A stretch of 64,000 nucleotides of DNA from Actinomycetes bacterium (GCA_003242515.2 QGUS02000003.1:12647-76646); one strand, 5' to 3'; shown: positions 2,997 through 22,384, counted from the stretch's first letter. Notes: generated by a model not told the origin, from the letters alone. Numbers and translations are program-made.

Positions 2997-3881
2997 ATGC
3001 GGATACTCCCCCGGCCGTTCGGGCTGATCGTCGCCGACGCCATGGCCGTCCTCGGCCGCACCTGGAAGACCCTCGTCCCGGTCTCCATCGCCGTGTTCGT
3101 GCCAGCGGCGCTGGCGTCCTGGGCGGCCTACTCCATCCCGGGGGCACTCGAGTTCGTGGAGGCCATCCTCCTCGAGCCGGAGACCCTGGCCGGTCTCCCC
3201 GCCGCGGAGTTCTGGGAGCGGGCCCGGCCGTTCGTCACCGCCGCGGTGGTCACGATGGTCGTGCAGCTCCTCGCGTCCGTCCTCGTGTTCCTCTTCTGCC
3301 ACCGCGTCGTGATCGCGTCGGTCCGGGAACAGCCCACCGGCCGGGCCTCCCTGCAGAGGGTGCTCCGCCGCTACCCCGTCGCCGCCGCGGCCACCGTCCT
3401 GTCCGCGGCCGCCGCGTTCGGTCTCTTCCTGATCGGGTACACGGTGTGGAGCATCCCGGCGACCATCGTCGCCTTCCCCAACCCCACCGCAGAGTTCGCC
3501 GGCACCGTCCTCCTCTTCGCCTTCACCGGCCCGGGGATCTGGCTGGCCGTGTCCATGTCGATGGTGACCCCGGTCGCCTCCGTGGAGGAGAAGGGGGTCT
3601 TCGCCTCGATCCGACGCAGCGCCGCCCTGGTCAGGGGCCGTTGGTGGGCCACCCTGGGGTTCCTGCTGGTGGTGGCGATGCTCGGGATCATCGCCGTGAA
3701 CCTGATCCAGCTGGTGGCCATCCCCGTCACCGCGGCCGGTGGCGGCGGCGCCACCCCGATCGCCTCGCTGCTCGGCGTCCTGGCCCAGGGACCGATCGTG
3801 GCGGCGATGGGCGTGATGTTCACCAGCTGGTACCTGGACCTGCGGGCCCGCAAGGAAGTGCTGCTGGTCGCTCAGCTCTGA
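2997..3881 (+). CDS. Polytopic membrane protein of unknown function
   Basis: ATG at 2997 lies in frame within ORF 2625..3881. There are several hydrophobic helices (LVPVSIAVFVPAALASWAAY, LGFLLVVAMLGIIAVNLIQLVAI). The upstream part of the ORF is antisense shadow of mutM. Confidence 0.6.
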   Translation: MRILPRPFGLIVADAMAVLGRTWKTLVPVSIAVFVPAALASWAAYSIPGALEFVEAILLEPETLAGLPAAEFWERARPFVTAAVVTMVVQLLASVLVFLFCHRVVIASVREQPTGRASLQRVLRRYPVAAAATVLSAAAAFGLFLIGYTVWSIPATIVAFPNPTAEFAGTVLLFAFTGPGIWLAVSMSMVTPVASVEEKGVFASIRRSAALVRGRWWATLGFLLVVAMLGIIAVNLIQLVAIPVTAAGGGGATPIASLLGVLAQGPIVAAMGVMFTSWYLDLRARKEVLLVAQL

Positions 3882-18831: not shown

Positions 18832-20439
18832 TCAGGCCTGGTCGAGGAGGAGGTCGGCGTACTGGTCGCGCACGACCTTCTTGTCGAACTTCCCGGTGCC
18901 GGTCTTCGGAATGGCCTCGATGAAGACGATCCTGTCCGGGAGCCACCAGGAGGCGACCCGACCTTCGAGGTGCTTGCGGAGCTCCTCCTCGGTGACCTCG
19001 CCCTTCCTGACCACGAAGGCCACCGGGCGCTCCTGCCACTTCGGGTGCTTGAGGCCGACCACCGTGGCCTCGGCCACGGCCGGATGGGCCATCAGCTCGT
19101 TCTCCAGGTCCAGCGAGGAGATCCACTCGCCACCGGACTTGATCACGTCCTTGGCCCGGTCGGTGATCCGGATGTAGCCCTCCGGGGTGATCTTGCAGAC
19201 GTCACCCGTGCGCATCCAACCGTCGACGAACGACTGGGCGGAGCGGTCGTCCTTGTAGTACTCACCGGCGATCCACGGGCCGCGGATCAGCAGCTCGCCG
19301 AACGCCTCGCCGTCGTGCGGGAGCTCCTCTCCCACCTCGTCGACGATCTTCACCTGCAGGCCGAAGACCGGGATGCCGGCCGTCTCGAGACGATCGAGCT
19401 GGTCCTCCAGCGGCCAGTCCTCCATGTGCGGCTTGAGCACGGCGACCGACGCGACCGGATTGGTCTCGGTCATGCCCCATCCCTGGATGATCCGGATCCC
19501 CTGAGCCTTCCAGAACCACTCGATCAGGGCCCGGGGGACGGCGGAGCCGCCGCACAGGAAGGCCCGGATCGACGACAGCCTGACATCGGGGTTCGCCTCC
19601 AGGTACTGCTTGATCCCCAGCCAGACCGTGGGGACACCGGCGCTGAAGGTCACGTTCTCCTCGGTGAACAGCTTCACCAGCCCCTGCGGCGAGAGGTCCG
19701 GTCCCGGGTAGGTGAGCTTGACGCCCCGGGTCACCGCCATGAACGGGTAGCCCCAGGCGGCGGCGTGGAACATCGGGACGACGGGCAGGACGTTGTCCGT
19801 CGGCTCGATGGGGAAGTTCGCCATGTTGTGGACGGTGTGGAGGTAGGTCGACCGCTGGGTGTATGCGACGCCCTTGGGGTTCCCCGTGGTGCCCGACGAG
19901 TAGCAGAGCATCATCGGCGACCGCTCGTCGAGCATCGGCCACTGCCCGTGCTCGGGCTGGTCGGCGATCAGGTCCTCGTAGGCGATGGAGCCGGGCAGGT
20001 CGTCGGATGCCTCCGGGCCCATGACCACCCAGTGCTTCACCGTCTCCATCTTCGAGGCGATCGGGGCGAGCAGCGGGACCAGGTCGGGGTCGACGAACAT
20101 CGCCTCGTCACCGGCGTGGTTGGCGACGTAGACGATCTGGTCGGCGAAGAGGCGGATGTTGATGGTGTGGCAGATCCGTCCGGTGTTGGCCGTCGCCCAG
20201 TAGAGCTCGTGGTGGCGGATGTTGTTCCAGGCGAAGGTACCCACTGCGGCGCCGCGCTCCAGGCCGAGGGCGTCGAACGCCGACGCGAGCCTGCGGACGC
20301 GATGGTCCGTCTCGGCGTAGGTGGTGCGGGTGATGGAGCGGTCGGCCTCGACCGACACGATCTCGGCGTCGGGGTGGATCCACACCGCGTGGTCGTAGAG
20401 CGTGGAGAGCAGGAGCGGGAAATCCATCATGTGGGGCAT
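18832..20439 (-). CDS. Long/medium-chain fatty-acid--CoA ligase (AMP-dependent synthetase)
   Basis: YSSGTTGNPKGV AMP-binding motif. 535 aa. GGGAGGA lies 5 nt upstream of the ATG. Confidence 0.85.
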   Translation of the reverse strand: MPHMMDFPLLLSTLYDHAVWIHPDAEIVSVEADRSITRTTYAETDHRVRRLASAFDALGLERGAAVGTFAWNNIRHHELYWATANTGRICHTINIRLFADQIVYVANHAGDEAMFVDPDLVPLLAPIASKMETVKHWVVMGPEASDDLPGSIAYEDLIADQPEHGQWPMLDERSPMMLCYSSGTTGNPKGVAYTQRSTYLHTVHNMANFPIEPTDNVLPVVPMFHAAAWGYPFMAVTRGVKLTYPGPDLSPQGLVKLFTEENVTFSAGVPTVWLGIKQYLEANPDVRLSSIRAFLCGGSAVPRALIEWFWKAQGIRIIQGWGMTETNPVASVAVLKPHMEDWPLEDQLDRLETAGIPVFGLQVKIVDEVGEELPHDGEAFGELLIRGPWIAGEYYKDDRSAQSFVDGWMRTGDVCKITPEGYIRITDRAKDVIKSGGEWISSLDLENELMAHPAVAEATVVGLKHPKWQERPVAFVVRKGEVTEEELRKHLEGRVASWWLPDRIVFIEAIPKTGTGKFDKKVVRDQYADLLLDQA

Positions 20440-20789
20440 CGAATCCTCCCTGCTGGTCGAAGACGCGCGGGAGGTTACGCGAGCAACCGGCGGGGTGGCC
20501 TGCCGACCGGCATCTTTTCCGCACCGCCCCCCATGCGCATCGGTGCCGCTCCGGCGGCAACTTCATCCGGACCGTCGGCCGCATCCGTCCTCCACGGAGT
20601 CGGGCCTTCCGGAGAGCTCCCGGGCTCCCCGTTCCCGGCGCTCCCCCTCCGCCCGGAAACGGGGGTCCGCTCGGAGCGCTGCTCCCCTGCCGACTTCGCC
20701 GCCACGCGTCGGGGGCACGACGAGGCGGCTCACGACCTGGTGGGAACCACCCCCGGCCCGTGGGGACGGAGGGCGGCTCCCGCGGAACG

Positions 20790-21128
20790 AGGGAGAAAAG
20801 AGAAACCCCGAGGGAGCCTCGGCCGAAGCCTCAACCCTCTCGGGGCTCTCTTGCCGCGCTTCGTCGGGCCGGGGACCCGAATCCGAGCGGACTCTCTTGC
20901 CACCGGCCGAAGCCGACGGCGGGTGCGGCCCGAGGGCCGCCGTTCCCGTTGCCGGGAACTGGTACAGGCCCGAAGGCCTGTTGCCGTTCGTCGGTGACGA
21001 TCCCGAAGGATCCCCGCCGAGCGATCGGCCATCCGAACGCTGCGGGCCGAAGCCCGGCTGCGATTCGGGAAACCTTCACGGACGGTCTCCCGCCCGATCC
21101 GGTGTCTCCGGGTTTCCCCTTCGACGTG
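20790..21128 (-). ncRNA. Candidate structured RNA, unit 2 (about 340 nt), minus strand
   Basis: Bounded by the promoter-like hexamers at 21163-21135 and the terminator-like repeat at 20850-20795. It contains hairpins with UUCG (5 copies including the repeat) and GCAA loops when read on the minus strand. Ends and strand are inferred, not measured. Confidence 0.3.
20795..20850 (-). repeat. 56-nt repeat copy A, terminator-like on the minus strand
   Basis: 54 of 56 nt identical to 21305-21360. Minus strand reads CCCCGAGAGGG..GGCUUCGGCC..CCCUCGGGG followed by UUUCUCUUUUCUCCC. Confidence 0.6.
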
Positions 21129-21134
21129 ACCGGA

Positions 21135-21163
21135 AAGTTACGCCACCAGGTGGGGTGGCACAA
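21135..21163 (-). promoter_or_regulatory. Sigma70-like promoter candidate for unit 2 (TTGTGC-17 nt-TAACTT on the minus strand)
   Basis: The hexamers sit at exactly the same offsets (331 bp shift) as the stronger promoter candidate of unit 1. Confidence 0.3.
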
Positions 21164-21180
21164 GCGGATTCGGCACTTGT

Positions 21181-21208
21181 TTTTCGCGAGCTGCGAGGAG
21201 TTTTCGCG
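21181..21208. promoter_or_regulatory. Pair of TTTTCGCG boxes, 20-bp centre spacing (module 2)
   Basis: TTTTCGCG at 21181-21188 and 21201-21208. The pair ends 17 nt upstream (minus-strand sense) of the -35 candidate. Confidence 0.35.
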
Positions 21209-21302
21209 CTCTGTGTACTCGAAGAACAGCACGAGACCTCTCGCGGCCCGGCGGGAGCCACCCCCACATCTCCACACGCTTCGCTTGGGGAAGGGCAGGG
21301 TG

Positions 21303-21459
21303 CGGAAATGAGAAACCCCGAGGGAGCCTCGGCCGAAGCCTCAGCCCTCTCGGGGCTCTCGGTGTCGTCTCTCCCGGGGAAAGCGGGCCCCCCGTTCGAG
21401 GCGACTGGTCTCCGGGGCCGAAGCCCCTTCGACGGTGACCGGGGCGAACCCCGTTCACG
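21303..21459 (-). ncRNA. Candidate structured small RNA, unit 1 (about 155 nt), minus strand
   Basis: Runs from just downstream of the TATGTT -10 (21471-21466) to the U-tract after repeat copy B. It has a 5' hairpin GUGAACGGGG-UUCG-CCCCGGUCAC, a long hairpin capped by GGGGC-UUCG-GCCCC, and a terminator hairpin. Confidence 0.35.
21305..21360 (-). repeat. 56-nt repeat copy B, terminator-like on the minus strand
   Basis: 54 of 56 nt identical to 20795-20850. On the minus strand it is followed by UUUCUCAUUUCC. Confidence 0.6.
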
Positions 21460-21465
21460 GCACGA

Positions 21466-21494
21466 AACATATGGGTCCCCTCCCGAGCCGTCAA
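21466..21494 (-). promoter_or_regulatory. Sigma70-like promoter candidate for unit 1 (TTGACG-17 nt-TATGTT on the minus strand)
   Basis: The reverse complement of 21489-21494 is TTGACG and that of 21466-21471 is TATGTT. The spacer is exactly 17 nt. Confidence 0.4.
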
Positions 21495-21511
21495 CCGGGA
21501 CCGCTCGCGAC

Positions 21512-21539
21512 TTTTCGCGGCTTGTCACGAATTTTCGCG
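21512..21539. promoter_or_regulatory. Pair of TTTTCGCG boxes, 20-bp centre spacing (module 1)
   Basis: TTTTCGCG at 21512-21519 and 21532-21539. Both are exactly 331 bp from the module 2 boxes, and 17 nt from the -35 candidate. Confidence 0.35.
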
Positions 21540-21565
21540 ACCGGTTTCTGTCCCACCCCCTACCT

Positions 21566-22384
21566 ATGATCGCCACCATGACCGCGACCGCGGCACAGGC
21601 CGTCCCGCTGCGACTCGAGAACCTCTCGCCCAGCCGGGCCGGCGACTTCAAGACCTGCCCCCAGCTCTTCAAGTTCCGGGCCATCGATCGCATCCCCGAG
21701 CCCGTGACCATCCATCAGGCGCGGGGCACCACGGCGCACCTTGCGCTGCAGCGTCTCTTCGACCTCCCCCGCACCAACCGCACCCCGGACACCCTGTTCG
21801 ACCTCTTCAGGCAGGCGTGGACCGAGATCCGGGGCGACGAGGAGTTCACCGGGCTCTTCCCGTCGGTCGAGGAGGAGCGCGCCTGGGGGATCGAGTCCCT
21901 CGGCCTCCTCGCCAACTACTTCGCCATCGAGGACCCGGCCACCTTCGAGCCGGTCGCCCGCGAGCTGGACATGACCGAGCAATTGGGCGACATAGTGATC
22001 CGGGGGATCCTCGACCGGATGGACCGCCGGCCCGACGGGGCGCTGGTGATCACCGACTACAAGACCGGCAAGGCGCCACCCGAGTCGTACGCCCTCCCCG
22101 CCTTCTTCGCCCTCAAGATCTACGCCCTGCTCATCCGGAACCGTCTCGGCGAGACCCCGGCGGAGTTGCGGCTCCTCTACCTGAACGGGCCGACCATGTA
22201 CACGCTGCCCGTCGACGACCGGCAGCTCGACGGCATGGAGAGCCAGCTGCGCGCCCTGTGGTCGGCCATCGACCGGGCGCTGGCCTCGGGCAACTTCCCG
22301 CCCCGGCCGGGGACCCTGTGCAACTGGTGCTCCTACCGGGACATGTGCCCGGCCTGGGTCGAGCCCCCGACCGAGTCGGTCTAG
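21566..22384 (+). CDS. PD-(D/E)XK nuclease, RecB-family exonuclease / Cas4-like with Fe-S cysteines
   Basis: ATG at 21566 (MIATMTATAAQ...). FKTCPQLFKF, GILDRMD, VITDYKTGK (D..D/ExK core) and C-terminal CNWCSYRDMCPAW. Codon usage changes sharply to high GC3 at this ATG. Confidence 0.8.
   Translation: MIATMTATAAQAVPLRLENLSPSRAGDFKTCPQLFKFRAIDRIPEPVTIHQARGTTAHLALQRLFDLPRTNRTPDTLFDLFRQAWTEIRGDEEFTGLFPSVEEERAWGIESLGLLANYFAIEDPATFEPVARELDMTEQLGDIVIRGILDRMDRRPDGALVITDYKTGKAPPESYALPAFFALKIYALLIRNRLGETPAELRLLYLNGPTMYTLPVDDRQLDGMESQLRALWSAIDRALASGNFPPRPGTLCNWCSYRDMCPAWVEPPTESV

Follow-up and report, generated by a model that had tools for sequence, protein, structure and literature searches.

The arrangement of co-regulated paralogous RNA genes with an upstream activating sequence is already known. 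In Pseudomonas aeruginosa, the paralogous small RNAs PrrF1 and PrrF2 are encoded in tandem, each under a Fur operator of its own, and in Escherichia coli the adjacent paralogues OmrA and OmrB are both OmpR-dependent. LytTR regulators recognize 9-bp direct repeats that are 11-13 bp apart and lie upstream of the -35 element, mostly at a distance of 10 bp and within a range of 4-11 bp (PMC6193735). AgrA acts at P2 and P3, the latter of which drives RNAIII, and in both promoters its proximal repeat has its centre near -60 (PMC4227749). Here, we describe a pair of tandem RNA genes in a 64,000-nucleotide stretch from an uncultured member of the Actinomycetes (GCA_003242515.2, QGUS02000003.1:12647-76646), referred to below as the window. 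The two minus-strand promoters of these genes, located between positions 21,135 and 21,539, each carry a pair of octamer boxes that is conserved together with the RNAs across the class Acidimicrobiia. What appears to be new at this locus is the RNAs themselves, two structured families without a match in Rfam 15 that are found in ~65 species and are supported by covariation.

The octamer TTTTCGCG occurs on the plus strand at positions 21181, 21201, 21512 and 21532, with no other copy in the 64 kb. The four copies form two pairs with a within-pair spacing of 20 bp and a pair-to-pair offset of 331 bp; this agrees base for base with an initial annotation of the sequence, which had also judged the count improbable by chance. 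Only 0.48 copies are expected in the window, and 0/100 dinucleotide-preserving shuffles reach four. Variants with one mismatch show no enrichment elsewhere in the window (12 found, 21.6 expected). The local G+C content (GC) of the window is ~0.65-0.70, close to the ~70 percent that the annotation had assumed for the host. On the minus strand, both modules share one layout, in which the proximal box is followed by 17 nt, a -35 hexamer, a further 17 nt and a -10 hexamer:

21532..21539, minus strand: distal box of the short-RNA promoter, reading CGCGAAAA on this strand, an exact octamer at about -80 to -73
21512..21519, minus strand: proximal box of the short-RNA promoter, an exact octamer at about -60 to -53, 17 nt upstream of the -35 hexamer
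21489..21494, minus strand: -35 hexamer TTGACG of the short-RNA promoter, from a consensus scan; TTGACG is kept in the short units of other species
21466..21471, minus strand: -10 hexamer TATGTT of the short-RNA promoter, from a consensus scan, after a 17-nt spacer; TA(C/T)nTT is conserved
21201..21208, minus strand: distal box of the long-RNA promoter, an exact octamer, kept in the long-unit promoters of relatives
21181..21188, minus strand: proximal box of the long-RNA promoter, an exact octamer 17 nt upstream of the -35 hexamer, conserved
21158..21163, minus strand: -35 hexamer TTGTGC of the long-RNA promoter, read off the sequence; TTG(T/C)nn is conserved in long units
21135..21140, minus strand: -10 hexamer TAACTT of the long-RNA promoter, read off the sequence; relatives have (ggtc)TAC(T/C/G)TT at equal distance

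All coordinates that had been proposed for the hexamers, along with their 17-nt distances and strand, were confirmed, and an independent consensus scan returned 21494 to 21466 as the sole promoter-like site in 2.5 kb. In both modules, the core promoter resembles those that housekeeping sigma factors use in Actinobacteria. The hexamers of the long-RNA promoter are weak when taken alone and become convincing only through their conservation in other species. From the hexamer positions, transcription is predicted to start at 21459 and 21128. Each module leads into a structured RNA that closes with the same hairpin and U-rich tail, as would be expected of the duplicated minus-strand promoters of tandem paralogous RNA genes that had been suggested at the outset:

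21304..21459, minus strand: short structured RNA, ~156 nt here and ~150 nt in relatives
21305..21360, minus strand: terminal hairpin and U-rich tail of the short RNA, intrinsic-terminator-like, its stem invariant across species
20794..21128, minus strand: long structured RNA, ~335 nt here and 238-501 nt in relatives
20795..20850, minus strand: terminal hairpin and U-rich tail of the long RNA (repeat D1), intrinsic-terminator-like

The ends of the short RNA were placed ~7 nt after the -10 hexamer (5') and at the end of the U-rich tail (3'). The two 56-nt terminal hairpins are 96 % identical and have only these two copies in the window. A 5' hairpin motif, GUCGAAGGGG-loop-CCCGGAGAC, is likewise common to both units.

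Two samples of related DNA place this locus in a wider context. Three syntenic metagenome loci were recruited via the protein encoded by a neighbouring nuclease gene (85, 80 and 74 % identity), and a scan for the hairpin stem, with one genome per species, yielded 67 stretches, essentially all from metagenome-assembled genomes (MAGs) of Acidimicrobiia. Because the hairpin pattern is silent on the boxes, the scan provides an unbiased sample of promoters; it fixes the stem by its own pattern, and the three protein-recruited loci show the stem independently. The related DNA in which the octamer was counted amounts to 570 kb, and the total sampled, the window included, to 634 kb. The three syntenic loci carry the same short and long units with the same hairpin stem, and their promoters show TTGACG or TTGTGC as the -35 hexamer, TAnnnT as the -10 hexamer and a box that precedes the former by 17-18 nt. 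The stretches from the hairpin scan are always this kind of locus, with one or two hairpins each, and the whole arrangement recurs in both samples. Across ~65 species of Acidimicrobiia, two tandem RNA genes are preceded by CGCGAAAA-N12/13-CGCGAAAA-N17-TTGnnn-N17-TAnnTT, and an alignment of 81 distinct promoters reads (C)GCGAAAA-N12/13-CGCGAAAA-N17-TTGnnn-N17-TA(C)nTT. An exact CGCGAAAA lies upstream of 83/83 hairpins that have at least 470 nt of upstream sequence; the four hairpins that lack a box are truncated by the end of their stretch.

The order of short unit and then long unit is kept in 52 tandem pairs, and the offset between their modules ranges from 200 to 2622 bp. The exact 331-bp offset to which the initial annotation drew attention was thus measured correctly in the window and carries no meaning beyond it: in this genome, the short unit and its spacer together measure 331 bp, and as a significant quantity the offset was rejected because it is not conserved.

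The two boxes differ in how strictly they are kept. When promoters are located by their -35 hexamer, -10 hexamer and RNA 5' signature, which makes the sample independent of the boxes, the octamers are distributed as follows:

Proximal box, 95 candidates from box-independent anchoring: CGCGAAAA in 89, CGCGAAAT in 4, CGCGAAAG in 0, CGCGAAAC in 0, other or absent in 2
Distal box, 93 promoters with a proximal box: CGCGAAAA in 67, CGCGAAAT in 13, CGCGAAAG in 2, CGCGAAAC in 1, other or absent in ~10

Variation is limited to the eighth base, and the CGCG half is invariant. In the same box-independent set, the DNA between -47 and -43 is mostly G+C-rich, with an A/T share of only 14-20 % at four of its five positions. 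A larger set of 122 promoters, defined by a search pattern that does not demand the distal box, has it in 110, with a spacing of 20 bp in 64, of 21 bp in 43 and of another length in three. The proximal box does not tolerate variation in number and spacing, whereas the distal box does. One locus (L019) has three boxes with spacings of 16 and 20 bp, unit A of another (L012) has two adjacent boxes with a spacing of 8 bp, and the distal box is missing from unit B of L012 and from ~10 other promoters.

The box is also specific to these promoters within the DNA sampled. The 570 kb of related DNA contain 222 copies of the octamer, compared with a mean of ~12 for permuted octamers, an 18-fold excess; ~5 of the 222 look like isolated chance copies, and all others lie within this promoter architecture. 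Had the pair geometry been common elsewhere, the idea of a dedicated site would have suffered, as the initial annotation pointed out, and in this related DNA it is not. All 124 promoters of the architecture lead into a recognisable short or long RNA of the family, and none precedes a protein gene. No other promoter in the 634 kb has the motif, the ribosomal-protein and housekeeping genes of the window included. A scan of metagenome contigs for the bare box pair is a specificity control and holds no regulon information: among the 143 matches listed, 140 are chance occurrences in unrelated organisms with GC of 0.21-0.73, and the remaining three, which have the promoter architecture, are all members of the RNA family. 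Viral contigs gave no match to the terminal hairpin and five chance matches to the box pair plus TTG, so no viral association is seen. In full-text literature, the octamer turned up only in eukaryotic E2F sites, primers and the like. Two unrelated contigs contain octamer arrays that may be iteron-like elements of other organisms, namely 6-10 tandem 21-bp units of GTGTGCGCGCGAAAACCGCCG at 1698-1920 of L125 (GC 0.68) and many TTTTCGCGAAAA palindromes with a 20-bp period throughout the A/T-rich L158.

The pair at 21512/21532 lies only 25 nt upstream of the -10 element of the divergent nuclease gene on the plus strand, a proximity that would suit boxes acting as plus-strand operators of that gene. 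In four species, however, the box lies 25, 25, 32 and 41 nt from the nuclease -10 element but always 17 nt from the minus-strand -35 hexamer, which assigns the boxes to the minus-strand promoters. Moreover, no plus-strand gene follows the second pair (21181/21201). Boxes that are functionless products of chance or duplication are likewise excluded by conservation in ~65 species and by the excess over permuted octamers. We regard both versions of this explanation as extremely improbable, and a nuclease-gene operator on the plus strand was rejected as effectively refuted by the comparative data.

The box pair is probably the target of a dedicated, sequence-specific regulator that co-regulates both RNAs. 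In this model, two minus-strand promoters of the housekeeping-sigma type would each drive one of the tandem paralogous structured RNAs, and each is preceded by two direct repeats, CGCGAAA(A/T), whose starts are 20-21 bp apart. Because this spacing is about two helical turns, both repeats face the same side of the helix, where a sequence-specific DNA-binding protein could occupy them, either as a dimer or as a pair of cooperating protomers. The protein bound upstream would then activate RNA polymerase, probably via its alpha subunit in the manner of class I activators, and one signal would switch both RNAs on together. In its geometry, the site matches those of LytTR-type response regulators, AgrA at the RNAIII promoter among them. 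AraC/XylS-type dimers bind 21-bp direct repeats, and by analogy a regulator of that type is a further possible candidate for the box pair.

The initial annotation had left room both for sites of one regulator and for A-tracts resembling upstream promoter (UP) elements. In the latter case, the boxes would be UP-element-like or curvature elements, that is, phased A-tracts read by the C-terminal domains of the alpha subunits, and the RNA promoters would be constitutively strong without a dedicated regulator. Several features are compatible with such a role. Firstly, if UP subsites are positioned as in E. coli rrnB P1, the A4 tract at -56 to -53 and further conserved A residues at -50/-49 fall inside the distal subsite region, where direct reading by the alpha subunit is possible. 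Secondly, the 20-21 bp spacing is in helical phase. Finally, no regulator gene is found among 30 window open reading frames (ORFs) scanned or in synteny with the locus. The composition of the element fits less well. A UP element would be continuously A/T-rich and degenerate from about -59 to -38, and here only -56 to -53 and -50/-49 are A-rich, the positions from -47 to -43 being mostly G+C. The CGCG half does not vary and only the last A tolerates change, alpha would not usually reach as far as the distal box at about -77, and the motif is absent from the ribosomal-protein and housekeeping promoters sampled. Two repeats in the same orientation at a rigid position (-60 to -53 and about -80 to -73), an invariant G+C tetranucleotide and absence from every other promoter in the 634 kb argue for an activator site rather than a UP element. 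We therefore consider it unlikely, though worth keeping in view, that the boxes are UP-like, and the site of a single regulator fits better.

Other observations weigh against a dedicated activator. It is only the position of the boxes that suggests activation rather than repression, and transcription of both RNAs is itself a prediction, with 5' ends taken from the hexamers. The 30 window ORFs scanned include neither a LytTR nor a response-regulator gene, nor any other gene of obvious DNA-binding type, and the locus has no transcription factor in synteny with it. The box is unlike the published consensus repeats of LytTR proteins, and its 17-bp gap to the -35 element contrasts with the 4-11 bp typical of those systems. 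Specificity, too, holds for the 634 kb sampled, and ribosomal RNA and transfer RNA promoters elsewhere in the genomes are conceivable further targets.

The short RNA folds more stably than its dinucleotide shuffles (z = -2.4). In an alignment of 35 species (A2), compensatory double changes occur in 20/41 of its consensus pairs, compared with 9.7 +/- 1.8 in column shuffles (0/500 reach 20) and 5-10 in controls with slid partners. This alignment shows covariation in hairpins H1 and H2, and a third hairpin, H3, has an invariant tip:

21376..21393, minus strand: apical part of H3 of the short RNA, invariant GGGGGCCCGCUUUCC containing the palindrome GGGCCC (A2, 35 species)

The strand assignment is supported by several invariant G-U pairs, since the opposite strand would have C-A in their place. 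Two loci carry three units, one of which is a mini unit of 56 nt that consists of a box-type promoter followed by the family hairpin alone (L024 4168-4223, L055 2842-2897). Such units suggest a conserved family core made up of promoter and terminal hairpin. The RNA bodies of divergent lineages can no longer be aligned, yet the boxes and hairpin persist. One lineage (L044, L046, L069, L077) has a divergent short unit placed back-to-back with the long unit; its body is different (~158 nt), and the boxes and a variant of the hairpin are kept. In L013, an inserted gene (3294-3731) of the F420H2-dependent quinone reductase family lies between the two units, which indicates that they can be moved apart without losing their own boxes.

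The long RNA is also more stable than its dinucleotide shuffles (z = -5.7), and its consensus fold across 22 species shows compensatory changes in 24/70 pairs. It keeps a 5' hairpin, a CGGGGAUCCUUCGGGAUCGUCG hairpin in the centre, GGAGUUGGGUCCCCGGCCCGAC and the terminal hairpin as invariant blocks. Between these, hairpins vary in number, giving rise to lengths of 238-501 nt. Hairpins capped by GNRA and UUCG tetraloops are enriched ~4-fold over shuffles on the RNA strand only, which again supports the strand assignment. A search of the window and 15 related loci against Rfam 15 gave no relevant match at gathering thresholds or at E <= 10, and a search of the literature on non-coding RNA in Acidimicrobiia turned up only raiA and a genome paper. 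Both RNAs thus apparently represent undescribed structured families.

A different role for the long unit would be that of a structured 5' leader, with the terminal hairpin as a regulated terminator that controls read-through into a downstream operon and the boxes controlling the operon promoter; the downstream gene would be the acyl-CoA synthetase gene or a gene for a membrane protein of ~200 amino acids (aa). In 38/48 loci, the ORF that comes next downstream shares the strand of the long unit, often only 11-122 nt after the terminator, and the synthetase gene is syntenic in 52 loci. In two relatives (L012, L013), the gap between terminator and start codon is only ~50-60 nt and includes a ribosome-binding site. 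Yet the downstream gene differs by lineage at distances of 11-2785 nt, the nearest ORF is on the opposite strand in 10/48 loci, and the gap in the window is 355 nt without excess structure. In addition, short units and the mini units of L024 and L055 use the same promoter and hairpin with no protein gene behind them, and no alternative anti-terminator pairing is seen. These observations make a leader function of the long unit improbable, and we keep it as a minor alternative.

The spacer between the long-RNA terminator and the synthetase start codon in the window (20440-20793, 355 nt) is non-coding, with GC of 0.74-0.76. It folds no better than its shuffles (z +0.23), and a third element within it was rejected for that reason. 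One segment of this spacer, 20720-20754, is 77 % identical to 21231-21265, which follows the short-RNA terminator. In ~20 loci, a same-strand ORF of ~200-228 aa, often 11-122 nt past the long-RNA terminator, precedes the synthetase gene; in L013 this ORF (2139-2774) encodes a bPH_2 domain.

The boxes lie within a 1.1-kb non-coding gap between two genes of the window:

18832-20439, minus strand: acyl-CoA-synthetase-type gene, one flank of the gap
From 21566/21578, plus strand: PD-(D/E)XK nuclease gene, the other flank, divergent from the RNA units

Downstream of the nuclease gene are a glutamate dehydrogenase gene and then a UvrD-type helicase-nuclease gene. The nuclease has hundreds of relatives at 70-85 % identity, labelled Acidimicrobiia by their sources. 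The flanks are syntenic as well, the nuclease in 53 loci and the synthetase in 52. The nuclease gene has a promoter of its own, with TGTC (21549-21552), N12 and TATGAT (21565-21570), and its ATG (21578) follows 7 nt on. Its mRNA looks leaderless, and the -26-type element resembles the PafBC (RecA-independent) DNA-damage promoter of mycobacteria. TGTC-N12-TA(TGA|CAC)T followed by ATG or GTG after ~7 nt precedes the nuclease gene in 31 loci. The concept of a -10 plus -26 element, and nothing further, is confirmed by published work (PMC8635444). All of the Logan contigs L002-L010, which come from the same organism, stop within the repeated terminal hairpin, at 390 nt upstream of the synthetase gene. 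A 34-nt exact repeat breaks short-read assemblies here, and consequently the locus will often be split in MAGs.

To our knowledge, Acidimicrobiia are abundant in soils, sediments and waters, almost none have been cultured, and virtually nothing is known of their regulation or non-coding RNAs. In this lineage, an invariant 7-8-bp direct repeat that is private to RNA genes in the sampled DNA provides a handle for finding the cognate regulator, and box pair, promoter and hairpin together form a practical signature for annotating such RNAs in metagenomes. A bolder interpretation, which we offer as speculative and on balance doubtful, is that box pair and terminal hairpin constitute a closed, class-wide circuit in which a novel regulator targets only two, sometimes three, large RNAs. 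The RNAs would then make up a new class of widespread non-coding RNA in bacteria. Within such a circuit, they might be the functional counterpart in Acidimicrobiia of global RNAs such as 6S or Ms1, neither of which has been reported from this class; alternatively, given the density of GNRA and UUCG loops and the invariant blocks, they might be scaffold or ribozyme-like RNAs. If the long RNA proves to be a global regulator or a new large class, it would join the short list of widespread bacterial RNAs without an assigned function; otherwise, the locus still gives a little-studied lineage a well-supported case of paralogous RNAs under common regulation.

Identity with several known RNAs was considered and rejected. 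The paper on Ms1 makes no mention of Acidimicrobiia and gives the flanks of Ms1 as a HAD-IB hydrolase and an oxidoreductase (PMC9130861), whereas the flanks here are the PD-(D/E)XK nuclease and the acyl-CoA synthetase. For 6S, there is no Rfam match in the window or 15 related loci at gathering thresholds and none relevant at E <= 10, and both the minimum free energy fold and the consensus fold are a row of local hairpins with a self-contained terminal hairpin rather than a rod with a central bubble. The raiA motif RNA has been reported in Acidimicrobiia (PMC10861870), and there is no match to the Rfam raiA model. A CsrB-like sponge of GGA motifs was rejected because GGAAG, GAAGG and GGAGG are not enriched, with a combined count of 4.3 per long RNA and 4.5 in dinucleotide shuffles.

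Resemblances to these and other systems lie at the level of organization. Like Ms1 and 6S, the long RNA is a structured, abundant-looking RNA of 240-500 nt that is conserved across an actinobacterial class. Like RsmY/RsmZ and CsrB/CsrC, which depend on GacA/UvrY, the two RNAs are unequal-length paralogues built of repeated hairpins, with a conserved, family-private upstream activating sequence; in contrast, their loops are stable GNRA and UUCG tetraloops instead of protein-binding GGA loops, and their site is a direct repeat and not a palindrome. The boxes themselves recall LytTR and AgrA sites, being two 8-bp direct repeats 12-13 bp apart upstream of the -35 element. The proximal box, centred at about -56.5, comes close to the AgrA position near -60, while its 17-bp gap to the -35 element falls outside the 4-11 bp of LytTR systems; one target of AgrA is a regulatory RNA gene. 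Unlike LytTR sites, the boxes read CGCGAAAA rather than ACCGCTTAG-like repeats, and there is no LytTR gene in the 30 window ORFs or next to the locus. With PrrF1/PrrF2 and OmrA/OmrB there is no sequence relationship, and the RNAs differ from those base-pairing RNAs in their unequal lengths (150 versus 240-500 nt) and tetraloop-rich structure. Where the PrrF genes have a repressor operator over the promoter, the present locus has a direct-repeat pair far upstream (-53 to -81), a position typical of activation. Nevertheless, the likeness to PrrF1/PrrF2 that was first proposed for this locus is borne out by its organization, as shared hairpins and 5' motifs identify the two genes as paralogues. 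As in both PrrF1/PrrF2 and OmrA/OmrB, they are adjacent RNA genes on the same strand, each with its own promoter, terminator and copy of one cis-element, and the presence of that element at both genes implies co-regulation by one factor.

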